Shown: piece after piece, positions 1,733-37,290 of the stretch | Layout of the letters: every line of letters begins with the position of its first letter | How positions within the stretch are numbered: the first letter of the stretch is position 1 | Origin: a virus | Lineage: Duplodnaviria > Heunggongvirae > Uroviricota > Caudoviricetes | IMG/VR virus record: IMGVR_UViG_3300022699_000502 | Location: 1-64,000 of that record | Reading direction: 5' to 3' (one strand) | DNA length: 64,000 bases | Notes under the pieces: model-generated | The model's input: only the letters and a program-made list of their open reading frames with translations | Told to the model about the DNA's origin: nothing | The model's database searches: none | Program-made: the position numbers and the translations under genes

Positions 1733-1779
1733 CTTGTTCATCCTATATAAATATTATGGGAATGGATATGTATGGTTAG
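1733..1779 (-). promoter_or_regulatory. conserved viral promoter element copy 1 (TATA box plus CCATTCCCA upstream element)
   Basis: plus-strand cttgttcatcctatataaatattatgggaatggatatgtatgg; on the minus strand CCATTCCCATAATATTTATATAGG lies ~40 nt upstream of the ATG at 1707. Confidence 0.6.
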
Positions 1780-2523
1780 TTAATATTAGTTGATTCGTTT
1801 CTTGATGCTGTTTCATCCTCGATTATTACAATCCTACATACCTTATAAAAGTTCTATCACAAGTCCTTCCACCACCACTCACCATCCACAGGCTTAACTC
1901 TGTATGTTTTACATATTTCACCATCTTTGATAATTAACATACGAAATTCATCATTCCATGATACGATCATATGATGCACCATCTACCAAGTACCATTTTT
2001 TGGTTATCCACATAATCACATAGCATATCCTTACCTACTGCGGGTACAACATATACATTATCATGTTCCCTAATAATATTTAATGTTATATTTATATGGT
2101 GGGGTTCAAACTTCATCAAATCTCACTCCAAAATGCGTACCATATTGCATGTTGATATATGATATTGTGAAAACATATCCATATATAATCCTGATGGATT
2201 TTTCATCTACTACTATGTATGCTCTTTCATCCATCAATACATATTCAATTTTTACAGTATACATGTCAAATCGTTAAATGCCAATAACATTGTCCGTTTT
2301 TAAACCTTTGTATTTCATCATAGCTTATAATTTCTAATTCACCATCAATTATTGCGATTGTCTTACTAATATTCAATATTTTCCAACTTCTAATTATTAT
2401 CATAATGATATACCACAATTTTCATCATCAGATAATTCATTTCGGACGAATTGGTGTGCATAACTTATACCAAATATAACCTTTAATCCATATTCACAAT
2501 ACACTACACAAAATAAAAATGGC

Positions 2524-2715
2524 CTATCTCTTCTGAATGTACGCATCATAATCCTCCATTTCATTCATCAATAAATTGTCCCAACACACATCATCATAAA
2601 AAGTATTTTTAACGTAGTTAGATATACCACCTGGTAATTGATAAATCTTATTGCCTGTTATTACTATAGCATAATCTATTTCAAACATACGTGTAAAATT
2701 ATATATTACTTTCAT
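2524..2715 (-). CDS. hypothetical protein (63 aa)
   Basis: ORF on coding (minus) strand of polycistronic block; no motif recognised. Confidence 0.3.
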   Translation of the reverse strand: MKVIYNFTRMFEIDYAIVITGNKIYQLPGGISNYVKNTFYDDVCWDNLLMNEMEDYDAYIQKR

Positions 2716-2735
2716 AAATAAATAAAGGAAAGGGT

Positions 2736-3125
2736 TTATGGGGTTTCGTCTGTTGTTTCAACGATCCAGATGTCGTAAGTTTCATCATGTTCTAACTTAC
2801 ATTTACTATCCTCTTCACCTAACAAATCCCGGACTCTTGTAACACTTACAGTTTTGCTTTCAGTAAATTTTATTCCTGATTCATCAATTTTAAGTGCTAC
2901 CATATCTTGATCGTCGTTCCTTAATATTTTGACATGGTCCTCGCCTGGTTCTAATCCCATCCAAGCTTGAGCTCTTTGTGGAATATATAACGTACAACTG
3001 TCTTCACCAACCCTATATGCCACTTCATTCTTCTTATAGGATTGATATCCTCTTCCACCTCTGCTCGTTATCAACCATCCATCTTCAGCCATCTGTCGCT
3101 TCTTCTCTTTCTTCATGTTATCCAC
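2736..3125 (-). CDS. hypothetical protein (129 aa)
   Basis: coding-strand ORF; basic N-term, acidic C-term; no motif recognised. Confidence 0.45.
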   Translation of the reverse strand: MDNMKKEKKRQMAEDGWLITSRGGRGYQSYKKNEVAYRVGEDSCTLYIPQRAQAWMGLEPGEDHVKILRNDDQDMVALKIDESGIKFTESKTVSVTRVRDLLGEEDSKCKLEHDETYDIWIVETTDETP

Positions 3126-3313
3126 CTATTATATATAAGACCTTCATATCTTTGCCTTTGAACTTTATTTTGTTCGACTAAATCCAATACAATACTATGT
3201 ACTGTCGTCTTGTTTTCGTCTATTGCTTCAGCGATCTCAGATGCTGTCCATCCATTATCATCGTTCTCTTTCAAAAACGTCTTTACTTTGTCTTTTACAC
3301 TCATCATTTCCAC
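3113..3313 (-). CDS. small winged-helix DNA-binding protein
   Basis: 66 aa; TASEIAEAIDENKTTVHSIVLDLVEQNKV resembles MarR-like HTH plus wing. Confidence 0.45.
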   Translation of the reverse strand: MEMMSVKDKVKTFLKENDDNGWTASEIAEAIDENKTTVHSIVLDLVEQNKVQRQRYEGLIYNRWIT

Positions 3314-3558
3314 CTAATATAATTCATGTTATAATCTCCTTCTTGTTTTTGGTCAACTTCGTTTTTATCAACCAATGACCTAATTGCTTGATTTATTGAT
3401 TGTCTGCGAAATCCAGTTACTTCTTCTATTTGCTTCGATGATATCCAATCACCATCGTTAAGTTTGACTATTTCCAATATTTTACCCTGTACGTCCCTTG
3501 ATTTCACACTCTCACCTTCTCTTTCCATTTTCTCAATCGATACTGGCATATAAATCAC
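3304..3558 (-). CDS. winged-helix DNA-binding protein
   Basis: 84 aa; N-term MPVSIEKMEREGE is shared with 33493..33864 (MSPVSIEKMEEEGT); the central helices look wHTH-like. Confidence 0.5.
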   Translation of the reverse strand: MIYMPVSIEKMEREGESVKSRDVQGKILEIVKLNDGDWISSKQIEEVTGFRRQSINQAIRSLVDKNEVDQKQEGDYNMNYIRWK

Positions 3559-3823
3559 CTAACGTATTTGATTCTTTCGTAATTAGAGCCTTCAATACAT
3601 GCTCACTTTTTATAGTTTTCTTATTTTCAATGTCTGTATATGTTGCAGCAGTCTGCATAAGGTCCTTAACATATATGTCTGCGATTTGTCTAATCGTGTT
3701 CACCGCCGTATCACTTATCCACGGCTCTCTATTGATCGCCGCTTTCGCTTCCAGTTTGAAAATATCCTTTGTCGTTTGGTACCTTAATAGTTCTTTCTTT
3801 TCTATATTCACACACATCACCAC
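3533..3823 (-). CDS. histone-fold protein
   Basis: 96 aa; IRQIADIYVKDLMQTAATYTDIENKKTIKSEHVLKAL matches the archaeal histone L2/alpha3 signature (compare HMf AGRKTIKAEDIELA). Confidence 0.5.
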   Translation of the reverse strand: MVMCVNIEKKELLRYQTTKDIFKLEAKAAINREPWISDTAVNTIRQIADIYVKDLMQTAATYTDIENKKTIKSEHVLKALITKESNTLGDLYASID

Positions 3824-3995
3824 ATTGTATTATTCCTGCTAAATCTTCACACGTACACTTACATGTTGCATCCATGTCTTCTGCATTCTCCTTTATCTCA
3901 TGGAACACGCAACCGTCATCACAGTTGATGTGTCCATGTGGACCATACGGACATGCGTCCTTTCTTTTCATATACTCCTTTTTGTTGATCACCAT
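3729..3995 (-). CDS. Cys-rich small protein (88 aa)
   Basis: 11 Cys in CPYGPHGHINCDDGC...CKCTCEDLAGIIQCGDVC; overlaps the next ORF by 95 nt, so uncertain. Confidence 0.3.
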   Translation of the reverse strand: MVINKKEYMKRKDACPYGPHGHINCDDGCVFHEIKENAEDMDATCKCTCEDLAGIIQCGDVCEYRKERTIKVPNDKGYFQTGSESGDQ

Positions 3996-4249
3996 TTCAC
4001 CTCGAACACTTCACTGTATGGAATGTTTATTTTGCCACATACATTCTGAATTTTCTTTTTGACAATTCTGGATTGATCCCATTCTTCAAGTCTTTCCGGT
4101 AAATCCAGTTCGACTTTAATACCCCTCATATTTTTGGTATGGGCTACAAACGGTATCTCTAATTTCCTTGCTCTCAACTTAATATGCCCCTCTATTTCAT
4201 TTTTTGTTGCTTTTGTAACAACCACGTCTGCTTTTTCCTTTCTTACCAT
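3989..4249 (-). CDS. hypothetical protein (86 aa)
   Basis: coding-strand ORF; start overlaps the neighbouring stop. Confidence 0.4.
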   Translation of the reverse strand: MVRKEKADVVVTKATKNEIEGHIKLRARKLEIPFVAHTKNMRGIKVELDLPERLEEWDQSRIVKKKIQNVCGKINIPYSEVFEVKW

Positions 4250-4652: not shown

Positions 4653-4690
4653 GATAACGAATCCACCGCAAACTATTTAAATATTGTGGA

Positions 4691-5575: not shown

Positions 5576-5845
5576 CTATAGGACCTCTGCGGTCAACCTC
5601 GCCAATATCGCTTCTGAAATTCTATCATTACCTTCTTCCAGTTCCTCGAACGTATAGTCTGGCTCGTCGTCTTCACACATCAATATTTGTCTTTGTTCAT
5701 TATTCCTTTTTGTTGCATATACTTCATTGTCGCTTGGTATCAATATTGCATACCAAATCTCCGATTCACCGTTTTCGTCCTCTATCTCCATCTCGTCTAA
5801 TACATAGACCAAATCTTCATCTAAATCTATTGCCATTTTTTTCAC
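5576..5845 (-). CDS. hypothetical acidic protein (89 aa)
   Basis: first gene downstream of promoter copy 2. Confidence 0.45.
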   Translation of the reverse strand: MKKMAIDLDEDLVYVLDEMEIEDENGESEIWYAILIPSDNEVYATKRNNEQRQILMCEDDEPDYTFEELEEGNDRISEAILARLTAEVL

Positions 5846-5860: not shown

Positions 5861-5904
5861 TATTGTTCATACTATTTAAATATATTGGGAATGGATATGT
5901 ATGG
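5861..5904 (-). promoter_or_regulatory. conserved viral promoter element copy 2
   Basis: tattgttcatactatttaaatatattgggaatggatatgtatgg; 40 nt upstream of the ATG at 5845. Confidence 0.6.
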
Positions 5905-5908: not shown

Positions 5909-6205
5909 TCACATTGCTAATATTGACTCACACACATATACCGTATTCCCAATGTTTACGGGGATAGCACCTACTATCTCCCTCAACATATCATAATCGC
6001 ATTTCCTAACATCAACAATCTTATTTTCGTAAGTATTATCGATGTCTCGTTCAATAACTGCGCTGGGAATGCGATCATTAAATGTCATAATAGAGAATAT
6101 ATATTCTCTAATTCTCATCAAATACCGTCCCGACCCAATTTTCCTATATTTTCTCATTAATATACCACAGGTCTTGTATTTATAATGTCGGATGGTTCCA
6201 ACCAA
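5909..6205 (-). CDS. hypothetical protein (98 aa)
   Basis: coding-strand ORF. Confidence 0.4.
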   Translation of the reverse strand: MVGTIRHYKYKTCGILMRKYRKIGSGRYLMRIREYIFSIMTFNDRIPSAVIERDIDNTYENKIVDVRKCDYDMLREIVGAIPVNIGNTVYVCESILAM

Positions 6206-7821
6206 CCTCTTCTAGCTATACCTACTCCAAATCTTCTAACAAAATCCATCATAGTTGTTCCGTGTGCATCGCTCCCGATCTCATACATAACATCGGTATC
6301 CATTATCATCTCATCGTTCAAGTCTAAGCGTTGAGGTAAACTATTTATTTCAAATATAATTCCATAATCTTCATGGAATGTATTTATATGTTTTGGTTGT
6401 AATACCTCATTTCCTTCTCTTTCACCTATAACTCTACCAGTTGGATGAGCCAACACATCTATAGAGTTTGTGCTGAAAGCATTATGTAACCTCTCAACTA
6501 TATTTTCATCTGTTATGCTTTGATGGACTGCGCCTATAACATAATCATAGTAGTCCAACCAATCCTCTTTATATATGTCACCGTCTTTCATTATATCAAC
6601 TTCAACACCCTTCAATATCTTTATGTCATGTTTATCGTTCAAATCATCTATGAGCATATTCCTATTTATTATGTCGTTCTCGTCCATATCTCCTAACGGT
6701 CTTTGATGGTCTGCTATACCAACATATTCATAATCTAACTCTATTGCTTTACTCACAATCCCTGGTATATCTACGTTTCCATCTGAATAATCGCTATGTA
6801 TATGAATATCACCCATTATATCTGATTCTTTAACCAAATCTGGTAAGTTATTGTTGAGTGCTGCTTCATGTTCACCTCTATCATCGCGTAATTCAGGTGG
6901 TATATATTCGAATCCCAATTTTTCGTATATTTCCCGTTCCTTTTCACCTGCAATCTTTTCATCGGTTTCCATGTCTGCCATCCTATATTCGTTCAGTGTC
7001 CAACCATACTGTTGTGCTCTCTTCCTCACCTTTATGTTGTGTTCTTTGCTTCCTGTAAAATATTGGATTGCTGCACCCCAACACTCAGGCTCTATGACCC
7101 TCACATCTATTTGTAGACCGTTATCCAACATAACGGAAGTTTTGGTGTCACCGCTTACCAATACCTTCATGACATCCTCGTAATTTTTAGTGGCTTCCAT
7201 AATCGTATCGCTATCGCCTGTTGTCAATATATCTATGTCACCGACTGTTTCCTTGCGCCTTCGTAGACTGCCCACAATTTCCAATTTATTCGTCTTTTCA
7301 GATAAAAATGAGGCCAATGAATGTGCATTATTCCACGCATCATCTAACCTATATCTGTCTGAAAATTTACGTAAATATTCAATTCCTTCTAATATATTCT
7401 GTTCAGTCTTTTTACCAAACCCGCTTAAATTCCTGATTGTACCTGATTGTGCGACTTCTTCTAAATCATCTAACGACTCAACACCTAACTCGTCATATAA
7501 TTTTTTGACGGCTTTTTTACCAATACCTTGTACCTTCTTCACTTCTTTAAGCCCATCCGGTATCTCTTCCTTCAAATTTTCTAAATATTCGCAAGTACCG
7601 CTTTCAATTATTTGTTCTATTTTTGAAGCAGTACTATCACCAACACCTGGGATCTCTTTCAAATTACCTTTCTCATACAGTTCCCTTATGTCCCAATCAG
7701 TGCTACTTATATTCCTAGCTGCATTTCTATACGCCCTTATCTTATATTGGTTTTTATCCAATATCTCCATCAATTCAACTATCTCATAAAATTTATCCGC
7801 TATTTCTTTCTTATTCATCAT
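6157..7821 (-). CDS. family X DNA polymerase (Pol beta-like core with C-terminal PHP domain)
   Basis: 554 aa; helix-hairpin-helix motifs IPGVGDSTASKI and GIGKKAVKKL; nucleotidyltransferase GSLRRRKETVGDIDIL; PHP motifs HIHSDYSDG, ADHQ, LAHP, GSDAHG. Confidence 0.85.
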   Translation of the reverse strand: MMNKKEIADKFYEIVELMEILDKNQYKIRAYRNAARNISSTDWDIRELYEKGNLKEIPGVGDSTASKIEQIIESGTCEYLENLKEEIPDGLKEVKKVQGIGKKAVKKLYDELGVESLDDLEEVAQSGTIRNLSGFGKKTEQNILEGIEYLRKFSDRYRLDDAWNNAHSLASFLSEKTNKLEIVGSLRRRKETVGDIDILTTGDSDTIMEATKNYEDVMKVLVSGDTKTSVMLDNGLQIDVRVIEPECWGAAIQYFTGSKEHNIKVRKRAQQYGWTLNEYRMADMETDEKIAGEKEREIYEKLGFEYIPPELRDDRGEHEAALNNNLPDLVKESDIMGDIHIHSDYSDGNVDIPGIVSKAIELDYEYVGIADHQRPLGDMDENDIINRNMLIDDLNDKHDIKILKGVEVDIMKDGDIYKEDWLDYYDYVIGAVHQSITDENIVERLHNAFSTNSIDVLAHPTGRVIGEREGNEVLQPKHINTFHEDYGIIFEINSLPQRLDLNDEMIMDTDVMYEIGSDAHGTTMMDFVRRFGVGIARRGWLEPSDIINTRPVVY

Positions 7822-7827: not shown

Positions 7828-8079
7828 TTATGCATAATATATTTTTAGCTCTCCATCAATTATTGACCAATTGCATATTTTTTTATTCTTCGTAACGTTT
7901 ATTGCTTCACGTCCCATCTCTCCTTGCATCATCGGATGTACAAAGATCGCAATTATATCTGTTCCATCAACACATATATGTATGGGGTCCTCATACAACG
8001 GATTACCCATAATTAGATGGTATCGTGGTTTAATCGTCATCATAATATCACGGATCCACAAATTCTTCTTTGTGTACAC
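7828..8079 (-). CDS. hypothetical protein (83 aa)
   Basis: coding-strand ORF. Confidence 0.4.
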   Translation of the reverse strand: MYTKKNLWIRDIMMTIKPRYHLIMGNPLYEDPIHICVDGTDIIAIFVHPMMQGEMGREAINVTKNKKICNWSIIDGELKIYYA

Positions 8080-8195
8080 CTTCTCGGTATGTCAGTTCGC
8101 TAGGGAACATCGAACATATTTTATCTCCGTCTATGATGATTTTTACCGGAACCTTCTCAATACTTTCATCTATCGTCGAATATCTTGCATAAACA

Positions 8196-8453
8196 CTAAT
8201 CATTAATTATCGTCTCCGCACTTATACTAATTTTAATTTTGAATCCTGGTAAGTTGTTACCTATATGTTCCCATTCACACAACGAGCGCCCTTCCCAAAA
8301 ATACTGAACGTCTTCCGCCATATTCAAATTGTATGCACACGTATATATGTCACCTTCTTCGAATACAATTGCTGCAAACGTATATGGGTGACACATCTGC
8401 TCTATCTCATACATATTATCCCAAATCATATTTCTGTTTATCAAGATACCCAT
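8196..8453 (-). CDS. hypothetical protein (85 aa)
   Basis: coding-strand ORF. Confidence 0.4.
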   Translation of the reverse strand: MGILINRNMIWDNMYEIEQMCHPYTFAAIVFEEGDIYTCAYNLNMAEDVQYFWEGRSLCEWEHIGNNLPGFKIKISISAETIIND

Positions 8454-8551
8454 CGATTATTCTTTCTTTAGTTAACGACGGTTCAGTATAATATGTAACA
8501 CCTCTTAGTTTCGTGCTATTGACCCACAAAATCAATTCCCAGCGCCCTTTA

Positions 8552-8785
8552 TCAATAGCTATCATTAATACCACTACCTATGTCTTCGGGCGATACAAGT
8601 CTATAATGCTCCATCTCACGTTCCCACAATTTTTCAGCGTCTGGTTCAGTGATATTACCACCATATAACTCGTTATCATTTATCCATATAACTACAAAAC
8701 CGTCATGTTCGAATAACCTCTTACAACTACCGAAATCATTTTCAATACGATAAACCAATAATTTCATATTACCACTTCGAACCAC
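8552..8785 (-). CDS. hypothetical protein (77 aa)
   Basis: coding-strand ORF. Confidence 0.4.
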   Translation of the reverse strand: MVRSGNMKLLVYRIENDFGSCKRLFEHDGFVVIWINDNELYGGNITEPDAEKLWEREMEHYRLVSPEDIGSGINDSY

Positions 8786-9008
8786 TTATAAGTTCAAATG
8801 CACTATTTTCACAAGTCCTATATAGATGTATACCGAAATCTACACCACCCCCATACAACATATCACCGTAACGCCATATCGTTACAGGCGCTTTCAGTTT
8901 TTGCCACGATCCATATTCTCCATTTCTTTTACTCACCAATAGTTTCATCCAGTTTCCTCCATTCCCCATCACAAGCAATCGTCCAAGATTTGAATGCATG
9001 AATACCAT
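8769..9008 (-). CDS. hypothetical protein (79 aa)
   Basis: coding-strand ORF. Confidence 0.35.
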   Translation of the reverse strand: MVFMHSNLGRLLVMGNGGNWMKLLVSKRNGEYGSWQKLKAPVTIWRYGDMLYGGGVDFGIHLYRTCENSAFELISGSKW

Positions 9009-9183
9009 GTAATCCGAATTCTCTCATCAATTTAGGAGGTACTCTATCATCGAAAGGAAATATTGATACTGTGTCCTCCCTCCTAAATATAAGACATTTT
9101 CCATAATAAATTGATGTTATCATATGTGTGTCCTCATATTTAAAGGTTGTGGATACTGTCCATCTTCGTCCAATTATCCTCAA
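8929..9183 (-). CDS. hypothetical protein (84 aa)
   Basis: overlaps 8769..9008 by 80 nt; one of the two may be spurious. Confidence 0.3.
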   Translation of the reverse strand: MRIIGRRWTVSTTFKYEDTHMITSIYYGKCLIFRREDTVSIFPFDDRVPPKLMREFGLHGIHAFKSWTIACDGEWRKLDETIGE

Positions 9184-10498: not shown

Positions 10499-10726
10499 TT
10501 ACTCTTCATGTATTTTAGTCATCTCATCTGTAAATTCTGAGACCTTCGATACAATATATATAGTATCCATAGTTTGGCTTTCATTAAGTTCTATTCCAAC
10601 TTTATCAAGCGATTTCTGTACTAAACTTAACGGGGTAGCATCCTGTGCTTCCGTCTCTTGTATAACCTCATATACTATATCTACGATCTCATTCCATCTT
10701 TTATCCATATTATCACCTTTGTCCAC
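10499..10726 (-). CDS. hypothetical acidic protein (75 aa)
   Basis: coding-strand ORF. Confidence 0.4.
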   Translation of the reverse strand: MDKGDNMDKRWNEIVDIVYEVIQETEAQDATPLSLVQKSLDKVGIELNESQTMDTIYIVSKVSEFTDEMTKIHEE

Positions 10727-10786
10727 AACCTTTATATAATCCTACGTATTTATTTATGTGCCAACCACACAAAAATAGTGAGGGGT

Positions 10787-11086
10787 TCACCCCTTTACTA
10801 TTTTACATGTGAGCTCGCGTAATACATCGACTGTTCTCTCATCATATTTTTCGTTAGTATCAATCACTATCTTCTTTATTTTAGATTGTCTAATCGGTAT
10901 ATAACCTTCCATCTTTTCGCCATCATAATGCCGTTCAGTCCTTAAATGCACCTCACCGGTGACTGGGTTTAACCTTAGCCCATTCCCTGGCCTCGTCCAA
11001 TGATCTGTTTGCATAGCTAACTTACCTTTATATTCAACATATTTGTTGCGTTCGCTATTACGACTCCTAACTTTTTCTTTAAACAT
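10787..11086 (-). CDS. hypothetical protein (99 aa)
   Basis: first gene after promoter copy 3; HWTRPGNGLRLNPVTGEVHL segment not assigned. Confidence 0.45.
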   Translation of the reverse strand: MFKEKVRSRNSERNKYVEYKGKLAMQTDHWTRPGNGLRLNPVTGEVHLRTERHYDGEKMEGYIPIRQSKIKKIVIDTNEKYDERTVDVLRELTCKIVKG

Positions 11087-11113: not shown

Positions 11114-11160
11114 ATATTGTTCATCCTATATAAATATTATGGGAATGTTAGGGAAGGGGA
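11114..11160 (-). promoter_or_regulatory. conserved viral promoter element copy 3
   Basis: tattgttcatcctatataaatattatgggaatgttagggaagggg, with a tandem second half-copy gggaagggg. Confidence 0.6.
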
Positions 11161-15402: not shown

Positions 15403-15447
15403 TATTGTTCATCCTATTTAAATATATTGGGAATGGTTTTGGATGGT
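15403..15447 (-). promoter_or_regulatory. conserved viral promoter element copy 4
   Basis: tattgttcatcctatttaaatatattgggaatggttttggatgg. Confidence 0.6.
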
Positions 15448-25863: not shown

Positions 25864-26365
25864 ACAGTTGTATCATCGCTGCTTCATAATTATCATGAGT
25901 CATAGGTTCTTTTGTTTGTGCCTCAATCTCCGTAACATGATACAATACCGATGTTTTATAATCTGGATATACTTTGATTGTAATATCCATACATTTCTCT
26001 TTCAACCATTTATAGAAATCCAAAGGAAAAGTTTTTGCGTTAGCACCGATGTTTGCTCCACACATCGTATCCATATGTTGTAAGTATGGTATCGGTGCAT
26101 TCAATATCCTTTTAGTAATAATACCTTCTGAGTTTTCCACTTCGATATCCATTATTCCTTTGCCTAAATCTAATGTTTCAACCATATCTTCTCCTTCAAG
26201 ATTCTCTACTATACTCTTCATCGCGTTCTTTATAAATAGCCCATCACGCGTTAATTTTTCATTATCTTCCATATAGTATTCATTATATAGGAATATGAAA
26301 TCTTCAAGTACAGATTGTGTTTGAACTCCCAATTGTTCATAATTCTCTATATTTTTAACATTCAT
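25784..26365 (-). CDS. hypothetical protein (193 aa)
   Basis: first gene after promoter copy 6. Confidence 0.5.
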   Translation of the reverse strand: MNVKNIENYEQLGVQTQSVLEDFIFLYNEYYMEDNEKLTRDGLFIKNAMKSIVENLEGEDMVETLDLGKGIMDIEVENSEGIITKRILNAPIPYLQHMDTMCGANIGANAKTFPLDFYKWLKEKCMDITIKVYPDYKTSVLYHVTEIEAQTKEPMTHDNYEAAMIQLYEDTNGGCSFRAGGYPGTGDLYMESE

Positions 26366-26389: not shown

Positions 26390-26425
26390 ACTCTTTTCTC
26401 TTATATAAAAGTTTTGGGAATGGTG
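26390..26425 (-). promoter_or_regulatory. conserved viral promoter element copy 6
   Basis: ctcttttctcttatataaaagttttgggaatggtgt. Confidence 0.55.
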
Positions 26426-27403: not shown

Positions 27404-27475
27404 TTGCGGGTGGAGGAATCGAACCTCCGACTACCGGGTTATGAGCCCGGTGCCCTACCACTAGACCAACCCGCA
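27404..27475 (-). tRNA. tRNA-Met (anticodon CAU), initiator-like
   Basis: folds by hand as a 72-nt cloverleaf; 7-bp acceptor stem (U1:A72), U8, A14, D-loop GG, anticodon stem CCGGG/CCCGG, loop CUCAUAA with U33 and A37, 5-nt variable loop, T-arm GGAGG-TTCGATT-CCTCC; three G:C pairs next to the anticodon loop; no encoded CCA. Confidence 0.85.
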
Positions 27476-27477: not shown

Positions 27478-27771
27478 TTATCCTATAACATTTTTTATGG
27501 TGAATTCCCATCCACCCTTTCCGTACGTCCCTTCAACACTTACTTCCATCACATCATCTAAAGGCACCACAACTATGTCCGCCGTTATACCCTCATCATA
27601 GATGTCACCTCGTCCATCATTCTTAAAGTCATCAGCAACCATTGAACCACTATTGAACGTACTCGCATCGATATGTAGTTTGTTTATTGCATCTAATCTG
27701 TTTTTTGCCTCGATTGTACCTAAAATTTCGACTCTACCAAATTTTTTGATTCCAACCATATATTCCATCAT
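27478..27771 (-). CDS. hypothetical protein (97 aa)
   Basis: coding-strand ORF between the tRNA and aRF1. Confidence 0.4.
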   Translation of the reverse strand: MMEYMVGIKKFGRVEILGTIEAKNRLDAINKLHIDASTFNSGSMVADDFKNDGRGDIYDEGITADIVVVPLDDVMEVSVEGTYGKGGWEFTIKNVIG

Positions 27772-28754
27772 TTCACCTCATACCTCAATATTAGGCCGTG
27801 TTCGAATGTATCCTTGAAGTTTTTCCCATAATCCGTTGATGTATCTATATCTATTATGTTCGTTCCATATTTTTCAGCTAACTCTTTATGTTCGTCGTTC
27901 GTAGTTAGTAGTGTGTCGCCGGCTCCCATCCGTAATACCCTCTGTACGTCCTGCCCGTACGTCGCCATATCTTGTGTTATCTTCTTTTTGAACTCCTCTA
28001 TTTTTTCTTTCTGTTTACCTTTGTGTTTCTCTTCTATTGTTTTATGTGCCTTGTCCGTTAGTTCATTTAGGCCGTTTATGTTAGTGTACTCCACTGTATA
28101 TGTGTCTTGTGCTCCTATGTCGCAGTTTTTTAGGAAGTTTGTGGGGGTTAGGCCGGTCCCTCCCACAAACACGTAGTCGTGTGAGCCTATCAAATGCTTT
28201 GCTTTCTCACATACTTTCTTGTAGTATTGTTTTGCGCGCTCCTCTATGTCTCTTTCGAACCTTTGCGCCGATTGTCCACCCTGGCTATGTTTACTTGGTA
28301 CTAATGAATTTATGTGTTCTAATTCCATCGTACTATTATTAACGTGTTCACCTATGACGGCTTCTTTCCGGTCTAACACTATAAGACCTATCGATATTTT
28401 GTCTTTGTTGAGTACATCTAGTAGGGGTTGTACATAAAATGTGTTATCACAATAATACTTGTTTGGTACCTCACCTTCCACTTCGTATACCTCACATACT
28501 TCTTGTTTATCGACATCTCCTGAGAATACTACCAAAGATGTATCTAAATTGTTTATTCCTTTTAAAACGCGAATAATACGCTTTAGAGCAGCTTTAACGT
28601 TTCCCCTCGTCTCCTTACTCTTGATGTTATCGGATTTTGCGAGCTGTTGTTGTAATTTACTCTTCATCGCATTAATGTTATGGTCTTTATTTATGTATAC
28701 ACTTATCAGTTCCGTGTTGTTACCCCTCATGTCTTTTAGGTCCTCTACATCCAT
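27768..28754 (-). CDS. class-I peptide chain release factor, aRF1/eRF1 family
   Basis: 328 aa; N-term LKDMRGNNTELISVYI (compare eRF1 LEAARGNGTSMISLII); NIKS motif; YYCDNTFYVQPL (eRF1 YxCxxxF YLCDNKFH); GGQ motif HSQGGQSAQRFER. Confidence 0.8.
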   Translation of the reverse strand: MDVEDLKDMRGNNTELISVYINKDHNINAMKSKLQQQLAKSDNIKSKETRGNVKAALKRIIRVLKGINNLDTSLVVFSGDVDKQEVCEVYEVEGEVPNKYYCDNTFYVQPLLDVLNKDKISIGLIVLDRKEAVIGEHVNNSTMELEHINSLVPSKHSQGGQSAQRFERDIEERAKQYYKKVCEKAKHLIGSHDYVFVGGTGLTPTNFLKNCDIGAQDTYTVEYTNINGLNELTDKAHKTIEEKHKGKQKEKIEEFKKKITQDMATYGQDVQRVLRMGAGDTLLTTNDEHKELAEKYGTNIIDIDTSTDYGKNFKDTFEHGLILRYEVK

Positions 28755-29185: not shown

Positions 29186-29442
29186 ATTTTCCGTCTACTC
29201 TTTATTTTCGTTTTGTAACTGTTACAGTTCGGACACCTAATAGGTGTGTCTATTAGGCCGAACAACTTATCGCCCTTCTTGACGGCATACCCACCAATTA
29301 TACCAGTATGCCTTATGTCTGTCCCTTCTTCGTGTTTTTTAGTGAATTTGTGCGTACAATTCTTACATTTATATTTTACTTCAAAAACTTTCATTATCAT
29401 CAACTCCGTTGTTATGATGGTATGAGGGAATTGCACCCCCAC
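29182..29442 (-). CDS. zinc-ribbon protein (86 aa), paralog of 32169..32405
   Basis: KCKNCTHKFTKK ... CPNCNSYKTKIKSRRKI versus KCRNCNHVFTKE ... CPNCGVEKCEIKKRIPV. Confidence 0.45.
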   Translation of the reverse strand: MGVQFPHTIITTELMIMKVFEVKYKCKNCTHKFTKKHEEGTDIRHTGIIGGYAVKKGDKLFGLIDTPIRCPNCNSYKTKIKSRRKI

Positions 29443-29474
29443 AAACGTCTACGTACCACCGAACTTTAAAGGGT

Positions 29475-30422
29475 TTACTGGTCGGCCTCGTCGAGTGCAC
29501 CACTATCTTGTGATGTCGTTGGATCATACGTGTTGTTCGTATCGGTTTGTTCGTTTGGTATGGTTCCGTTTCCTATATCTAATATCAGACTTTGTCCACC
29601 TTCAGTTATGACCCACCTAACGTTACTTTCAGGATCCCTTAGTGCTTGTATATACCTAAGTGCCTTTATGTATTCCATCGTCTCTTGTGTCATATTTTCG
29701 GATTGATATGACAATATTTCTATCGCTTCGGCTTGACCTTCTGCTAACTGAACTGTTGCGTTAGCTTCACTGGCGGCTCTCACTCTAATCTTTTGCGCTC
29801 TTGCTTCTTCCGCATCCAACTCGTATTGTGCTGCCTTAACATCTATTCGAGCAGCTTCACGTTTTTCTGCAGCTGCCAACACGGCATTCGGCATATCAAC
29901 ATTCCTTATACGTACACTTTGTACATATAAATTCTCTATGTTCAATGCTTCTTTAACTGCAATCTGTACATTCTCATTGAATTTGGCTCTATTCTGGTTC
30001 AGTTCTAATCCCGTTAAGTTCATTTTGTTTGCCACCAATGTTATTTGTGATTCCAATTCCATCTTTATCTTTTCCTTGTATTGTGGGTTATTTACCCTTA
30101 AATCACCGACACTCTTCTCATCAATATTGTATTGTATCTGGTATGTGACCGGTACATTATAACCGTCATCCGTTATAACTTGTGTATCAACTTTTATGTA
30201 TTGTGTGTTATACCTGACCATTTCCGTCTCCAAAAATGGATTCTTAAAGTTGAATCCTTCATCGTATTGTGAACCGATTCCGCCGAACCCACTGACTCCT
30301 ACAGCTTTGTGTCCAGCTGGCACTATCACTACACTCATCGACAGTAGTACTATTAGTGCTACTACTATTATTCCTATTCCGACCATCAGGCCTTTTCTAA
30401 ATCCTTCATCTTTGCTTACCAT
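29475..30422 (-). CDS. SPFH/band-7 (stomatin/prohibitin/HflKC-like) membrane protein
   Basis: 315 aa; N-terminal transmembrane segment GLMVGIGIIVVALIVLLSMSVVIV then a band-7 core, then a long coiled-coil with AAEKREAARIDVKAAQYELDAEEARAQ. Confidence 0.7.
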   Translation of the reverse strand: MVSKDEGFRKGLMVGIGIIVVALIVLLSMSVVIVPAGHKAVGVSGFGGIGSQYDEGFNFKNPFLETEMVRYNTQYIKVDTQVITDDGYNVPVTYQIQYNIDEKSVGDLRVNNPQYKEKIKMELESQITLVANKMNLTGLELNQNRAKFNENVQIAVKEALNIENLYVQSVRIRNVDMPNAVLAAAEKREAARIDVKAAQYELDAEEARAQKIRVRAASEANATVQLAEGQAEAIEILSYQSENMTQETMEYIKALRYIQALRDPESNVRWVITEGGQSLILDIGNGTIPNEQTDTNNTYDPTTSQDSGALDEADQ

Positions 30423-30424
30423 AT

Positions 30425-30460
30425 AGGGACTATGGGGATCGAACCCACATCATCCCTCAT
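30425..30460 (-). other. tRNA 3'-half-like minihelix (T-arm plus acceptor-like)
   Basis: minus strand AGGGAT-GAT-GTGGG-TTCGATC-CCCAT-AGTCCCT-A; not a complete tRNA. Confidence 0.3.
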
Positions 30461-30794
30461 TTAGTTTCTTCCATGCTCTTCCGGTTGCTATAACTCTACC
30501 TAATTGTTTGTTGAACTGATCCCCTTTGCTACATACTGCATACCCTTTCGTTATCACTGGTGGTCCATCCAACTCTTCGTCCCAACTCTCTGGTATTATT
30601 TTTACACACGTTACTGCAATCGTATCTTCATACTGTTCATTATTGACTTCAACCATCGTAGGATCATCGTACCTATCATGATATATTTTTCGTTGTAAAT
30701 GTTTTTTATGCAGTTTCCTCTCTAACCTTTCTTCATCATCTTCTAAACACATGTTGAACCTCCACGAGTGGACAGGGAATTGAACCCCTACCAC
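30450..30794 (-). CDS. hypothetical protein (114 aa)
   Basis: coding-strand ORF flanked on both sides by tRNA-like T-arm fragments. Confidence 0.45.
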   Translation of the reverse strand: MVGVQFPVHSWRFNMCLEDDEERLERKLHKKHLQRKIYHDRYDDPTMVEVNNEQYEDTIAVTCVKIIPESWDEELDGPPVITKGYAVCSKGDQFNKQLGRVIATGRAWKKLNEG

Positions 30795-30812
30795 CCACTA
30801 CGAACGTTATTT
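30772..30812 (-). other. second tRNA T-arm-like fragment
   Basis: minus strand GGTAGGGGTTCAATTCCCTGTCCACTCG; imperfect. Confidence 0.25.
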
Positions 30813-31362
30813 ATTGGGTGTTCCGACCAGTTCCTACCGTCACATCCGAGTGGTTCGGTCTCGTTTTAACCGGGTCCTTCATACCCTTCACTTTATATAT
30901 TGTCGATGGCTTCGGATACTCCTTATGGTCTTTCTTTAGTATGACTCCTGACCCTTTCCAAACATGGCTATATTTTTCGGAAGGTAGCCACCTAACAGAC
31001 TTATGTGTACCTTTCAACATCTTCGCAAGTTTACGACCAAATGCATATGAGGCACTGCTAGCATTCTCTCCTTTGAATACGAGGTAGTGCGTCGTAGCTT
31101 TACGTGCCACCATGACAATCTGCACATTCCTATATTCCTCTTCGAGGTGCTTCCATTCAGCTTTATTGACGTCTAACCTTTTCCTATAGTGCTGGTCTAA
31201 ATTAACGAACTGTTTCCAACCATCATATTGTAAGTCTTCGATGCTCTTTTTATCGAGATAATCCTGTCCCTTTACCTGGACGATGGAATATCCCATATTG
31301 TCACCTTTCCTTTTTTCTAAAATCCATTTGTTCATCCATGTTTTTCGCCTCCTCAGTCGCAA
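30811..31362 (-). CDS. basic protein (183 aa), unusual in an otherwise acidic proteome
   Basis: K/R-rich; GYSIVQVKGQDYLDKK N-terminal segment; function not recognised. Confidence 0.45.
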   Translation of the reverse strand: MRLRRRKTWMNKWILEKRKGDNMGYSIVQVKGQDYLDKKSIEDLQYDGWKQFVNLDQHYRKRLDVNKAEWKHLEEEYRNVQIVMVARKATTHYLVFKGENASSASYAFGRKLAKMLKGTHKSVRWLPSEKYSHVWKGSGVILKKDHKEYPKPSTIYKVKGMKDPVKTRPNHSDVTVGTGRNTQ

Positions 31363-31513
31363 CCTGCAACTTTTCTTCTATATTTCGCTCTATCTTTTCC
31401 ATATATTCATCTACCTCCTTATGAAGTTCTTCTTTTAAACATGATAAATGATAAGGTTCCTTTTTATGTATGATTGCATTTTTAACCTTTTTTCCACATC
31501 TACAACAATTCAT
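31301..31513 (-). CDS. hypothetical protein (70 aa)
   Basis: first gene after promoter copy 7; CxxC...C. Confidence 0.4.
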   Translation of the reverse strand: MNCCRCGKKVKNAIIHKKEPYHLSCLKEELHKEVDEYMEKIERNIEEKLQVATEEAKNMDEQMDFRKKER

Positions 31514-31540: not shown

Positions 31541-31585
31541 CTTCCTATTATATAAATATATTGGGAATGGTGTTTAGGTTATGGG
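31541..31585 (-). promoter_or_regulatory. conserved viral promoter element copy 7
   Basis: cttcctattatataaatatattgggaatggtgtttaggttatggg. Confidence 0.6.
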
Positions 31586-33192: not shown

Positions 33193-33194
33193 GT

Positions 33195-33460
33195 TCTCAC
33201 TGTCCGTCCTATCGGGGGTGTGGGATTTTTAGGTGTCCCACAAACACCATCCTTTGGAGGAAGGATGTCAAGATTGGGCGACACGGTTCTTGACTGACCG
33301 TGGTTTACGATTTATTGTGAAGGGTAGTTTTACGTGATACCCAGCACGTGGATTTTTACGAGTGCTGCTCGGAGGCGAATTGGGTAAAATAACCCAGGTT
33401 TATCGTGATAATAATGAGGGTAGGGACGCTAATCCCTCTACCCTCTTTGGAGGCGATATT
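33195..33460 (-). ncRNA. GC-rich multi-hairpin structured RNA candidate (leader or ncRNA)
   Basis: at least 6 consecutive perfect inverted repeats: GTGTGGGA/TCCCACA, CATCCT/AGGATG, GTCAAGA/TCTTGAC, CAGCAC/GTGCTG, GGGT/ACCC, GAGGGTAGGGA/TCCCTCTACCCTC; sits downstream of promoter copy at 33466-33495. Confidence 0.4.
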
Positions 33461-33465
33461 ATCGT

Positions 33466-33495
33466 GATATAAATAAATAATGGGAAAGGGGTTTA
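33466..33495 (-). promoter_or_regulatory. conserved promoter element, variant copy
   Basis: tgatataaataaataatgggaaaggggttt. Confidence 0.45.
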
Positions 33496-33864
33496 TTCGG
33501 CTAAGTCGTCGAGGTCAACCTCATCCTCACTTTCGTCTGCTTCCTCTGTTCCTTCACTGTCTGTTTCCTCGTCCATCTGGAATTCTTCAGGATTGTCGAA
33601 CCAATCCTTTTTACCGTAGTGTATCAGGTTCTTGCCTTCATCGTTCTCGACTCTTCCCCTAACGAAATCGCCGTTATCACACAAACCTCTTAATTCTGTG
33701 TTTGCATGTGGACCCTTTATGTCCAACGCTTCGGCAACTTCGCCTTGGGTCATTAACGCTTCCTCTTCTTCAAAGAGGGACTTAATCCTATCTTTTACTG
33801 TTTCCTTCGATTGGTTTACTGGCGTTCCTTCTTCTTCCATCTTCTCGATAGATACAGGGCTCAT
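33493..33864 (-). CDS. wHTH-like protein with acidic tail (123 aa)
   Basis: N-term MSPVSIEKMEEEGT is paralogous to 3304..3558; C-terminal D/E tract. Confidence 0.5.
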   Translation of the reverse strand: MSPVSIEKMEEEGTPVNQSKETVKDRIKSLFEEEEALMTQGEVAEALDIKGPHANTELRGLCDNGDFVRGRVENDEGKNLIHYGKKDWFDNPEEFQMDEETDSEGTEEADESEDEVDLDDLAE

Positions 33865-33908: not shown

Positions 33909-33950
33909 ATGTTCATACTATATAAATATATTGGGAAAGGTGTTGGGGCT
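33909..33950 (-). promoter_or_regulatory. conserved viral promoter element copy
   Basis: atgttcatactatataaatatattgggaaaggtgttggggc. Confidence 0.55.
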
Positions 33951-34108
33951 TATGAATGTATTGTAACTTGAAGTGTTTTCGGTTTTCCTTCGAGCTTATG
34001 TTTTTTGACGTACAGTGTACCAACAACCGGGTCATCGCTGACTTCTTTGTATCTATATGTGCGTTTGGTCGATTTTTCAAATTCAAACTCAACTTCAATT
34101 TTGTCCAT
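33950..34108 (-). CDS. hypothetical mini-protein (52 aa; hand-translated)
   Basis: MDKIEVEFEFEKSTKRTYRYKEVSDDPVVGTLYVKKHKLEGKPKTLQVTIHS; AGGAGG 8 nt upstream; replaces the wrong-frame track ORF 33913..34098. Confidence 0.35.
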   Translation of the reverse strand: MDKIEVEFEFEKSTKRTYRYKEVSDDPVVGTLYVKKHKLEGKPKTLQVTIHS

Positions 34109-34159: not shown

Positions 34160-34190
34160 TATATATAAAGGTTTTGGGAATGGATTGGTC
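34160..34190 (-). promoter_or_regulatory. conserved viral promoter element copy
   Basis: atatatataaaggttttgggaatggattggt. Confidence 0.55.
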
Positions 34191-34563
34191 ACTTCTTGTT
34201 TTGTCGTCTCATGACGAATGCCCTCGCATTCATGCTATCTGTGATCGCTTCCCACACATACATCGGTGCTGCATTATAAAAGTAACGCACGATGTATGGG
34301 AGTGCTCGTTGTATCGTATCGTCTGCTCTAGTAACACACCCAACCATGTCGTTCGCCAAGAAATTCTCGACGAAATGCCCGCCTTGACGTTCGTACATCA
34401 TACACTTATATATGTTGTGTATTATGCCGGCTACGTGGCTCACTTCCTTGTCAGTCCATTCATCTCGTTCCATGCGAGCCTCCTCACGAAGATACGCCAC
34501 GATATCTTCACGGCTCAAATCACGTTCTAACCAATTTTCCATACATATACTCTTCTTTTTCAT
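34189..34563 (-). CDS. hypothetical protein (124 aa)
   Basis: coding-strand ORF. Confidence 0.45.
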   Translation of the reverse strand: MKKKSICMENWLERDLSREDIVAYLREEARMERDEWTDKEVSHVAGIIHNIYKCMMYERQGGHFVENFLANDMVGCVTRADDTIQRALPYIVRYFYNAAPMYVWEAITDSMNARAFVMRRQNKK

Positions 34564-34588
34564 CTTATCAACTCATTATCATCTTTAC

Positions 34589-34621
34589 CCTATATAAAGG
34601 TTTTGGGAATGGATTTAGGGG
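34589..34621 (-). promoter_or_regulatory. conserved viral promoter element copy
   Basis: cctatataaaggttttgggaatggatttagggg. Confidence 0.55.
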
Positions 34622-36061: not shown

Positions 36062-36366
36062 TGTTTCACCTTCTGTGCCAAGTATTCGGTCAACAATTTT
36101 AGTTTCGTCACTTTAGTTTCGTCGTCATATTCGTATAGTTCGAGCGGTGTATAGTATTCGCTCACAAGGATATGACCGAAGCTTCCGCCCAACTCACCAC
36201 AACTGGTGCATTGATGACGTATGAAATCCTGTGCATCTTGTTTAAAGTCGAAGTCTTGTACGACCCATTCACGTTCAGTATCTATTCCGTCGTCGCCTCT
36301 CGGTAACTCTTTCGGATTCGCGTTCCTAATGGTAGGCGTGTTCGTCCGTCCTATAACTCTATACAT
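36058..36366 (-). CDS. hypothetical protein (102 aa)
   Basis: coding-strand ORF. Confidence 0.4.
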   Translation of the reverse strand: MYRVIGRTNTPTIRNANPKELPRGDDGIDTEREWVVQDFDFKQDAQDFIRHQCTSCGELGGSFGHILVSEYYTPLELYEYDDETKVTKLKLLTEYLAQKVKQ

Positions 36367-36499
36367 TTTTAATACGCTCCTTTTTCGTTTTTTGCCAATC
36401 CTTCACAGACTGTATCAGTATTTCCCAACCTTGTCGTTCCTCGTCGTCTGCTTCTTCGGCCCTTCGCTCATATTCTTCTAACTTTTTCGTCCAATCCAT
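36359..36499 (-). CDS. hypothetical mini-protein (46 aa; hand-translated)
   Basis: MDWTKKLEEYERRAEEADDEERQGWEILIQSVKDWQKTKKERIKNV; GGTGG 7 nt upstream; stop overlaps the start of 36058..36366. Confidence 0.3.
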   Translation of the reverse strand: MDWTKKLEEYERRAEEADDEERQGWEILIQSVKDWQKTKKERIKNV

Positions 36500-36570
36500 A
36501 CGTATCGCCACCTAATGTCGCCTCAGGATTTGCACCTGACTATGCCGCTATGGGACGACTACATAAGGGT

Positions 36571-36843
36571 TTATTCGATGTTATGCATACTTGCTATATC
36601 GTATGCTAATTCATCGTATTCATCAATTTTAATGAGTTCAACGAATACTTGTGGCCCTTTTCTAAAGATTACCGCATCAGGCACATTAACCTGATAGTTA
36701 TGGTTTAGCGATTCTAAGAATCTTATCGTACAATTCTCTAAATCTTCTAAACCGTTCTTTTTCATCAGAAACGAAGTACAATTATTATCGAATCCGACAC
36801 GAACAAATCCGTCGTGTTTACTTTTTCTTATCTCATATTTCAT
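36571..36843 (-). CDS. hypothetical protein (90 aa)
   Basis: coding-strand ORF. Confidence 0.4.
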   Translation of the reverse strand: MKYEIRKSKHDGFVRVGFDNNCTSFLMKKNGLEDLENCTIRFLESLNHNYQVNVPDAVIFRKGPQVFVELIKIDEYDELAYDIASMHNIE

Positions 36844-36902
36844 ATATATCGGCCTCTCATTTTTTCATTCATTTCTTCTTTATATTATAATAACACTCTA
36901 CT

Positions 36903-36932
36903 TATATATAAATATAATGGGAATGGTTTGGT
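36903..36932 (-). promoter_or_regulatory. conserved viral promoter element copy
   Basis: tatatataaatataatgggaatggtttggt. Confidence 0.55.
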
Positions 36933-36946
36933 TGTTTATGGTTTTT

Positions 36947-37231
36947 TCAGGGTAAATGTTCGAAATGTTCGACATGGTTCTTTATTATCTTATCATCTAT
37001 TCGTTCTGCCGCACAACTCGGTTTGTATGTCGCTGTCAGTTTTCCCGTAACAACTGCTTGTTCTCCTGCGTATTCGTATGTTGCTCCATACTTACACGGT
37101 CGCTTATGCAATATTTTCATGAAGTCCTTTCTGTCGACTTGTATGTATAGCTCGTCGAATTCGCTTATGTCTATCGGCCCGTTTGGTTCTATACTTATAT
37201 CTTCCGCCCCTACATCTTTTTCATTTTTCAT
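36947..37231 (-). CDS. hypothetical protein (94 aa)
   Basis: coding-strand ORF. Confidence 0.4.
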   Translation of the reverse strand: MKNEKDVGAEDISIEPNGPIDISEFDELYIQVDRKDFMKILHKRPCKYGATYEYAGEQAVVTGKLTATYKPSCAAERIDDKIIKNHVEHFEHLP

Positions 37232-37257
37232 ATTTATCTAATCTATAATACATTTAA

Positions 37258-37290
37258 TTATATATAAAGGTTTTGGGAATGGTATGGATT
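37258..37290 (-). promoter_or_regulatory. conserved viral promoter element copy (last before the strand switch)
   Basis: ttatatataaaggttttgggaatggtatggatt. Confidence 0.55.

Follow-up and report, generated by a model that had tools for sequence, protein, structure and literature searches.

Repeated promoter modules whose flanks differ by class are already known from archaeal viruses. The class I intergenic repeats of HF2, an archaeal tailed virus, are seven 58-bp promoter modules of the early-middle region (Russ, Pfeiffer and Dyall-Smith 2021, PMC8707807), and comparable modules with class-specific flanks are also found in rudiviruses and lipothrixviruses (PMC11065993). Here we describe a repeat of this kind in the first 64,000 nucleotides of IMG/VR virus record IMGVR_UViG_3300022699_000502 (Caudoviricetes), a stretch hereafter called the window. 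The element, which we call the class-A module, joins a box, CCATTCCCA, to a TATA box of the TTTAWATA type through a 5-nt spacer, and recurs twelve times on the minus strand of the window.

The class-A module appears to share its logic, not its sequence, with the repeats of HF2 and of Sulfolobales viruses. As in HF2 and other haloferacalesviruses, it is a multi-copy intergenic module of ~58-75 bp (seven copies in HF2, twelve here) in the early-middle region of an archaeal tailed virus. In both cases a promoter made of a B recognition element (BRE) and a TATA box lies between class-specific motifs, the first preceding the BRE and the second surrounding the start site; a different promoter type precedes the first gene of a co-directional morphogenesis block, shown in HF2 to be one long transcript; the repeats are kept in related viruses (here one orthologous copy, in relative L216); and no RNA polymerase gene is found in the genome, here as far as the sequence was examined. 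The differences are that the two modules have no sequence similarity, that the TATA box here is of the TTTAWATA type, that the host lineage of the present virus, with its 37% G+C, is not obviously haloarchaeal, that its copies are quasi-regularly spaced at ~5 kb and dense at the strand switch, and that promoter activity and start sites were measured in HF2, whereas here they are derived from sequence. A regulatory sequence of early and anti-defence genes of Sulfolobales viruses (Bhoobalan-Chitty et al. 2024, PMC11065993) likewise combines a strong TTTAWATA and BRE core with virus-specific flanks, and is repeated upstream of small, fast-evolving, non-homologous genes of unassigned function, much as single genes follow single copies at 33.9-37.3 kb of the window. 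However, the known cases are rod-shaped, filamentous and spindle-shaped crenarchaeal viruses, whereas the present virus is tailed; for some of the rudiviruses a winged helix-turn-helix (wHTH) repressor, Aca8, has been linked with the motif, whereas the class-A module has no assigned regulator; and seven of the present copies lie inside a long co-directional array instead of before isolated genes.

Among cellular archaeal promoters, the activator sites that abut the BRE, namely those of TFB-RF1 in Pyrococcus furiosus (PMC5937170), of EarA at the Methanococcus fla promoter and of the Sulfolobus ara-box (PMC5512572), serve weak BREs and have known factors, whereas the core described here looks strong and the motif is unrelated. 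A bacterial parallel can be drawn as a functional analogy only. Middle promoters of phage T4 combine a MotA box at -30 with the host -10 element, sigma-70 being appropriated by MotA and AsiA. There as here, a host core is joined to a virus-class-specific upstream box that replaces or extends the usual recognition element; unlike the present module, the T4 promoters are bacterial and their box defines a temporal class, whereas a role of class A in timing is a prediction. No homologue of MotA or AsiA was found among the proteins examined.

Results

Twelve copies of an intergenic module in the leftward block

Exact CCATTCCCA occurs 10 times, always on the minus strand, compared to 0.53 occurrences expected by chance. 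Allowing up to two mismatches, the composite CCATTCCCA-N5-TTTAWATA was found 12 times against 0.04 expected, and no shuffle reached 12; within these sites the box differs from CCATTCCCA by one base at most. All 12 sites are on the minus strand and together span 1744-37282, with boxes at 1757, 5886, 11140, 15428, 21629, 26415, 31562, 33932, 34175, 34604, 36918 and 37274. The spacing between box and TATA box is exactly 5 nt in 12/12 copies, and the copies all occupy short gaps that immediately precede gene starts. An exact CCATTCCCA at 44161 has no TATA box, falls within a gene of an AT-rich island and stands outside the class-A set. The twelve-copy repeat is therefore real, and it probably marks one co-regulated set of transcripts. 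A reading made earlier from the letters of the window (the sequence-only reading) had counted thirteen copies; its coordinates agree with ours to within 2 nt and twelve of its copies are sound, but the one at 33481 (33468-33489, minus strand) is degenerate. There, a one-mismatch box is followed by a TATA box that is degenerate at the 5-nt register (CCTTTCCCA-TTATT-TATTTATA), and the copy heads a non-coding stretch. This stretch, ~200 nt without an open reading frame (ORF) at 33285-33467 on the minus strand, can form a strong hairpin (GAGGGTAGAGGGATTAGCGTCCCTACCCTC), has three ATCACG(A)TAA repeats, and may be a non-coding RNA or a regulator-binding array.

Self-comparison of positions 1-38000 recovered the class-A modules and almost nothing else that is repeated. 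Pairwise matches between modules extend over 24-107 bp at 76-100% identity, most of them over 50-78 bp at 78-92%, so that the unit is nearer 60-75 bp than the ~45 bp proposed earlier. The genes behind the copies, mostly ORFans, are not paralogues of one another, and the similarity ends at the module edges; for these reasons segmental duplication was rejected as the origin of the repeat, which is not a by-product of gene duplication. No cluster of CCATTC outside promoters, such as an autoregulatory array, was found. Scanning IMG/VR for the composite motif returned 19 loci, and scanning a metagenome collection returned at least 120, each with a single match; both sets look like chance, with no relative recovered from the former and none among the matches listed for the latter.

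From left to right (all coordinates on the minus strand), promoter 1 (1744-1765, CCATTCCCA-TAATA-TTTATATA) carries a second CCATAC unit 10 nt upstream and heads gene 1111-1707, whose ATG lies 36 nt after the TATA box; the orthologous promoter is kept in L216. Promoter 2 (5873-5894, CCATTCCCA-ATATA-TTTAAATA) also has a second CCATAC unit 10 nt upstream and heads gene 5576-5836, as called by the Joint Genome Institute (JGI). Promoter 3 (11127-11148, ACATTCCCA-TAATA-TTTATATA) appears to drive a single gene, 10787-11086, which ends at a hairpin and T5 tract at ~10771. Promoter 4 (15415-15436, CCATTCCCA-ATATA-TTTAAATA) overlaps the final codons of ORF 15418-15777 and precedes gene 14885-15379, the product of which gives a weak wHTH match (E=0.003). 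Promoters 5 (21616-21637, CCCTTCCCA-AAACT-TTTATATA) and 6 (26402-26423, CCATTCCCA-AAACT-TTTATATA) head genes 21386-21580 and 25784-26365, respectively, and promoter 7 (31549-31570, CCATTCCCA-ATATA-TTTATATA) heads gene 31301-31513, coding for a small Cys-rich protein. Promoter 8 (33919-33940, CCTTTCCCA-ATATA-TTTATATA) is followed by gene 33493-33864, which has a weak wHTH signal (E=0.16) and codes for a paralogue of the MarR-like protein encoded at 3304-3549. Promoters 9 (34162-34183) and 10 (34591-34612), both CCATTCCCA-AAACC-TTTATATA, head genes 33950-34108 and 34189-34563, the latter nearly leaderless with its ATG 27 nt after the TATA box. Promoter 11 (36905-36926, CCATTCCCA-TTATA-TTTATATA) heads gene 36571-36843. 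Finally, promoter 12 (37261-37282, CCATTCCCA-AAACC-TTTATATA), which heads gene 36947-37231, is the first leftward promoter at the strand switch, where it stands back to back with a rightward promoter at 37344-37359. The first genes behind the copies mostly code for ORFans, small Cys-rich proteins or proteins with weak wHTH or Zn-finger matches.

CCATTC is the class-specific part of the module

The copies were aligned on the TATA box, relative to which positions are counted. The alignment reproduced the promoter consensus given by the sequence-only reading and resolved two sharp blocks of information, from -14 to -6 (CCATTCCCA) and from 0 to +7 (TTTAWATA). In all 12 copies the TATA box is either TTTATATA or TTTAAATA, in agreement with the TTTAWATA consensus cited for archaeal viruses (PMC11065993). 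An A is found at both -3 and -6 in 12/12 copies, and since these two positions are the strongest BRE determinants (PMC5512572), the CCA together with the spacer is best read as a BRE. The pattern CCA-N5-TTTAWATA occurs at 24 sites on both strands against 0.28 expected, 12 of which are class A and about a dozen of which are others; an A is present at -3 in 23 of these 24 sites, the A at -6 being imposed by the search pattern. The strict conservation earlier ascribed to the whole element thus has two components, a 3′ CCA that appears generic and CCATTC at -14 to -9, which by this comparison is the sole part specific to class A.

A second, upstream CCATNC unit, said earlier to occur often, is present in only 4 of the 12 copies, at an offset of 10 nt in three and of 5 nt in one. 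The tract from -29 to -1 is A/C-rich and nearly G-free, with five G in 348 cells of the alignment and none from -20 to -1. Further downstream, a weaker AT-rich block at about +20 to +32 (TATAATAATATAAG) lies just ahead of AAGAGG or AGGTG and the ATG. Three discrete forms of the spacer are found, WWATA, AAACT and AAACC, and spacer and leader together define subfamilies of copies (WWATA with GGATGAACA, AAACT, and AAACC) across which the box is invariant.

Start geometry and gene content point to an archaeal host

In five genes that lack a Shine-Dalgarno sequence, the ATG follows a TATA box at 20-22 nt (promoters 4689-, 39691+, 46749+, 38909- and 37344+). Four of these leaderless starts (39727, 46785, 38872 and 37382) agree with JGI gene calls, and the fifth, behind 4689-, is our own ORF call. 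By comparison, seven class-A genes led by a Shine-Dalgarno sequence (AAGAGG/GGTG) have their ATG 35-40 nt after the TATA box. The distances of both gene sets are accommodated by one predicted start site ~22-25 nt past the TATA box, a spacing of the archaeal kind. An AT-rich hexamer that could be taken for a bacterial -10 element does precede the leaderless ATGs, but with only 0-2 nt in between it lies too near them for that role. Pairs of TTGACA-like and TATAAT-like sequences 16-18 nt apart, as expected of sigma-70-type sites, were not enriched (83 compared to 73.7 ± 8.9 in shuffles).

The gene content is consistent with this geometry. A 328-aa protein encoded at 27768-28754 (-) is a full-length homologue of the archaeal release factor aRF1 with intact NIKS and GGQ motifs, and its best PDB matches are archaeal aRF1 structures (4af1, 3agk); a viral release factor could serve to manipulate host translation termination or to deal with stop-codon issues. 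Genes for Hjc and AGOG are located just left of the window, and PolX (6157-7821, -) has its closest named cellular matches in Thermoplasmatota, at ~48% identity. An archaeal host is thus supported by the genes for aRF1, Hjc, AGOG and PolX that the virus carries. The archaeal type of the TATA/BRE core, as earlier proposed, holds on the strength of TTTAWATA, the A at -3 and -6, the start geometry, the lack of sigma-70 enrichment and the presence of aRF1, Hjc and AGOG.

Other indications of the host are less direct. The virus carries a PolX-PHP polymerase together with an NAD-dependent, LigA-type ligase (window 6157-7821, -; L089 17563-19413; L217). On a contig of Candidatus Saliniplasma (Thermoplasmatota), the genes for PolX and NAD-dependent ligase are adjacent, and its PolX is among the closest cellular relatives (48%); this pairing hints at the origin of the genes or at the host. 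A host search through terminase relatives in GTDB genomes was uninformative, the best being ~30% identical and belonging to many bacterial and a few archaeal metagenome-assembled genomes (MAGs). Relatives of the virus group come from soda-lake and other metagenomes, some of them binned into bacterial MAGs. Two related contigs are binned in a 'Petrotogales' MAG, and one of them itself carries Hjc. Contigs of related viruses occur in both 'Petrotogales' and 'Promethearchaeota' MAGs whose accession prefixes are related, apparently from one study, and these are probably misbinned viruses.

The box is conserved in a related virus

In L216, a relative from run SRR11308167 with an AAA ATPase 94% identical to that of the present virus and ~80% nucleotide identity over genes, the orthologue of gene 1111-1707 is preceded by CCATTCAATACCATTCCCAAAATATTTATATA. 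Of the 22 positions of box, spacer and TATA box, 21 match the present promoter, the spacer length being kept, and 10 nt upstream there is a CCATTC unit, but the leader has diverged and contains a 10-nt insertion. Since the genes farther upstream are unrelated, homology begins at the module itself. That the box was kept while the leader diverged argues for a functional box. The soda-lake relative L213, whose PolX is 57% identical, has CCCTTACCA-N5-TTTATATA as well as class-B and class-C-like promoters (see below).

Spacing of the copies and transcription units

The seven left-hand copies are separated by 4129-6201 bp (mean 4968, coefficient of variation 0.15), which is more regular than random placement (P about 1e-4, for a subset picked after it had been seen). 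A period of ~5 kb, earlier claimed for the whole block, thus describes these seven copies; in the last 3.8 kb of the block the copies are dense, as had been noted, though with five good copies and a degenerate one where six in 4 kb had been counted. Across 1.7-15.4 kb, class-A sites alternate with promoters of a second class, class B: sites 4681, 9144 and 14176 lie 1.2-2.0 kb downstream of class-A sites 5886, 11140 and 15428, and ~3 kb before the next class-A site. Because of this alternation, the unit that recurs every ~5 kb consists of two promoters.

Runs of five or more T are found 24 times on the minus strand in 39 kb, and only 5 of them are intergenic, at 4621, 10771 (with a hairpin), 14021, 37291 and 37404. 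The run at 37291-37295, 9 nt upstream of box 37274, is the sole one directly upstream of a class-A copy. Given the rarity of intergenic oligo-T, read-through from upstream is likely, with the copies as putative internal re-initiation points. The proposal that each copy heads a run of coupled genes of about 5 kb is therefore borne out in part only: class-B promoters and the T5 tracts at 4621, 10771 and 14021 intervene, and in the dense stretch at 33.9-37.3 kb each copy precedes essentially one small gene.

A putative docking site next to the BRE, and competing explanations

We consider it probable, at roughly 60%, that the twelve modules are promoters for the host archaeal RNA polymerase, acting with TATA-binding protein (TBP) as well as transcription factor B (TFB), and that CCATTC, abutting the BRE, is a putative docking site for a factor that co-regulates the leftward early/middle block. 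Each module is built of a consensus TATA box (TTTAWATA), of a BRE-like stretch (CCA and the next five bases, A being invariant at -6 and -3), which forms the core common to about a dozen other sites, and of CCATTC at -14 to -9 from the TATA box, or about -45 to -40 from the predicted start. This last part extends the core within the G-free A/C-rich tract, and in some copies another CCATNC unit stands a helical turn farther upstream. The predicted start lies ~22-25 nt past the TATA box, within the conserved ATAATATAAG stretch, and would leave a leader of 11-15 nt with an AAGAGG ribosome-binding site. A sequence-specific DNA-binding protein would dock at CCATTC, adjoining TFB, and switch the entire leftward block on or off together, while the copies spaced at ~5 kb would serve as re-initiation points on a largely read-through gene array. 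The earlier proposals of a single temporal class of transcripts, and of a viral or host factor at the box, may apply. Archaeal activators typically bind directly upstream of the BRE (PMC5512572; TFB-RF1, PMC5937170), which is the position that CCATTC occupies, although the BRE does not look weak. By analogy with HF2 and with the Aca8-type shut-off of rudiviruses (PMC8707807, PMC11065993), a repressor is as possible as an activator. If the modules were merely recent copies of one another, the spacer would match the box in conservation; its occurrence in three types instead favours a docking site.

Several observations weigh against a docking site. Start sites, timing and promoter activity are all predictions from the DNA sequence. 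The CCA, and even CCATTC, may reflect a plain preference of the host TFB; the CCA-N5 element is absent from the promoters of the Saliniplasma contig, of which only a handful could be examined. We could link no DNA-binding protein to the box, and most of the genes that come first after a copy are ORFans with weak wHTH or Zn-finger matches. Viral DNA-binding candidates are encoded at 3304-3549 (MarR-like), 14885-15379, 33493-33864, 37382-37804 (HTH and Zn ribbon) and 37793-38872 (triple HTH and LAGLIDADG). The core looks strong and known upstream activators usually serve weak BREs, so that a repressor, or no factor, fits at least as well. The orthologous class-A promoter of L216 is the single one compared in full. 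No multi-copy module was found in 20 kb of L213, nor in the stretches sampled from two more distant relatives (L218 and L210), and the 12-copy expansion thus looks lineage-specific.

The module could, on a less probable account, be a strong constitutive promoter that needs no factor, its extended BRE-proximal sequence being favoured by the host, spread by recombination and homogenised by gene conversion, so that conservation of CCATTC would reflect core strength or shared descent instead of class regulation. With TATA box and A at -3/-6 near consensus, no activator is obviously needed; subfamilies of spacer and leader are what copying followed by drift would produce; and in HF2, mutations of the alpha-motif and of the BRE left activity undiminished and the repeats worked without viral genes (PMC8707807). 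Yet other promoters of the virus have an equally good CCA-N5-TATA with different bases at -14 to -9, which are thus unneeded for the core, and the box is invariant across subfamilies that differ in spacer and leader, and was kept in L216 despite the divergence of the leader. More speculatively, the docking site could be one of several in a cascade of promoter classes on the host polymerase, in which the boxes CCATTC (class A), GTCCACAA (class B) and ATTCCAAAA (class C) abut a common BRE/TATA, each is read by a different viral adaptor contacting TFB, and the ~5-kb spacing of class A re-primes the gene array. If true, this would be an archaeal counterpart of the re-targeting of promoters by MotA in phage T4.

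Two further explanations were considered, and we regard both as very improbable. The motifs CCAUUCCCA...UUUAUAUA might act in RNA, as a signal for processing or stability by which the long early transcripts are divided into units. The rarity of intergenic oligo-T on the minus strand, which makes read-through into the modules likely, and the structured tRNA-minihelix-like elements of neighbouring gaps would suit such a signal, which we nevertheless think highly unlikely in view of the exact 5-nt register to a perfect TATA box in 12/12 copies and of the first copy at the strand switch (37274), which has no upstream gene on its strand; nor was any conserved secondary structure seen, the box being unpaired and C-rich (by inspection; no dedicated fold test was run). 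Less credible still is a bacterial host, in which TATAAT, 12-14 nt after TTTATATA, would serve as the -10 element, with a phage-specific sigma factor or activator recognising the upstream boxes. Many TATA boxes do have a TATAAT-like hexamer 12-15 nt downstream, from which the same start is predicted in class A, two related contigs sit in the 'Petrotogales' MAG, and the closest terminase relatives in binned genomes (~30% identity) are mostly from bacterial MAGs. However, TTTATA and TATAAT are only about 14 nt apart, sigma-70-type -35/-10 pairs are not enriched, the hexamer of leaderless genes is too near the ATG, the virus encodes aRF1, Hjc and AGOG, and the Hjc-carrying 'Petrotogales' contig is most likely a misbinned virus.

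Other promoter classes share the core

By the bases next to the common core, the virus appears to have four distinguishable promoter classes, at least three of them besides class A. The class-B promoter at 4674-4689 (-), GTCCACAATA-TTTAAATA, shares only the CCA-N5-TATA core with class A and is kept in L216. Its siblings are at 9137-9152 (-), 14169-14184 (-) and 10723-10738 (+), and the four sites (4681-, 9144-, 14176- and 10731+) give the consensus GTCCACAAYN-TTTAAATA. A related form, GTCCAKAATC-TTTATATA, is found at 39699+, 40361+ and 49037-. In class C, the promoter at 46749-46764 (+), ATTCCAAAACA-TTTATATA, lies 20 nt before the leaderless ATG at 46785, which opens the first gene of the 46.8-64 kb rightward morphogenesis block; this promoter (46757 in the window) is kept in L212, a contig from SRR11308167. 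Class-C siblings occupy 38894-38909 (-) and 37344-37359 (+), and the consensus ATTCCAAAAN-TTTAWATA covers 38901- and 46757+, with 37352+ as a CCG variant.

Some well-formed promoters oppose the local gene direction, namely 10723-10738 (+) and 49030-49045 (-) in the window, 15956 (-) in L089 and 7512 (-) in L213. L212 has also kept the antisense promoter found at 49037, between the genes for terminase and portal protein. Behind several promoters of classes B and C, a GC-rich hairpin and a T-rich stretch (..CGCCAAC..GGGAGGGTTTATCCCTCC..TTTT) come within ~25-60 nt, which suggests that these promoters produce short antisense or leader RNAs.

Layout and gene content of the window

Minus-strand genes occupy 1-37.3 kb, a repeat-rich control region lies at 37.3-43.2 kb, and morphogenesis genes run rightward from 46.8 kb. 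The virus is identified as tailed by its genes for a large terminase (47543-48967, family PF27249), a portal protein (49058-50326) and a tape-measure-like ORF of 2069 aa (56435-62644). The window corresponds to contig Ga0248669_100020 (137,081 bp) of JGI metagenome 3300022700, or to a twin of that contig. By coordinate arithmetic the contig stops at window position 60383, within the tape-measure gene, and the 3.6 kb that follow (60384-64000) must therefore stem from another assembly of the virus, longer or permuted. No GenBank phage matched the window at the nucleotide level, nor does the terminase exceed 27% identity with any from these phages; a search of IMG/VR with the portal protein returned no relative. 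The early/middle block on the minus strand contains small ORFans and genes for aRF1, an RNA ligase, a radical-SAM protein and PolX.

In the control region, ~7 copies of a 14-bp palindrome (TGCGAAAATTCGCA and variants) form two clusters flanking the genes at 40.9-42.9 kb (40731-40790 and 42986-43097); 39225-39305 and 39360-39621 belong to the repeats as well. An inverted repeat of 16 bp, GCGGGGGGTTTATATA / TATATAAACCCCCCGC, is perfect, and GATATATCCCTGC recurs three to four times in the region. These repeats look like operators for dimeric helix-turn-helix (HTH) proteins, a replication origin, or both. To its right, a 3.5-kb island of ~21% G+C (43230-46730) inside the 37% G+C genome carries four rightward genes coding for Lys/Asn/Ile-rich proteins; an oligo-T tract and TTTATATAAA stand before three of these genes. 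The right edge of the island, with its AT-rich upstream sequence, is also found in L212, and the island may have been inserted as a mobile element or derive from a plasmid.

Selfish elements are common in the virus group. A LAGLIDADG domain fused to tandem HTH domains is encoded at the strand switch (37793-38872, -), inteins interrupt the terminases of relatives (P0002, P0017 and P0046 are listed), and in L216 a LAGLIDADG gene (7928-8863) is inserted between Hjc and AGOG, where the present virus has none.

The only canonical tRNA gene of the window, tRNA-Met (27404-27475, -), adjoins the aRF1 gene. Elements resembling a minihelix of tRNA acceptor stem and T-arm, with GGTTCRAWTCC-like loops, lie between minus-strand genes at 29401-29474, 30387-30449, 30753-30810, 36512-36570 and 13921-14020. 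The last of these folds into a cloverleaf whose 7-bp acceptor stem is perfect; a weak intron-containing tRNA-His was called there by ARAGORN when its threshold was relaxed. An Rfam search with these tRNA-like intergenic elements gave no matches. They could act as punctuation for RNase P/Z processing in long early transcripts.

Discussion

To the promoter repeats already described in archaeal viruses, the present work adds a tailed virus, what appear to be four promoter classes built on one core, and a quasi-regular spacing of the copies. If class A is a co-regulated class, the module would offer a way into an uncultured archaeal virus of 137 kb in which nearly all early genes are ORFans. By the logic developed for Sulfolobales viruses (PMC11065993), the genes directly behind the copies would be candidates for host take-over or anti-defence functions. 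The box itself could be used as bait for its regulator, and the exact register of box, BRE and TATA box would make the module a clean substrate on which to study how a factor adjacent to TFB affects archaeal initiation. Under the same premise, the module would also constitute a host-independent argument that this group of viruses infects archaea.

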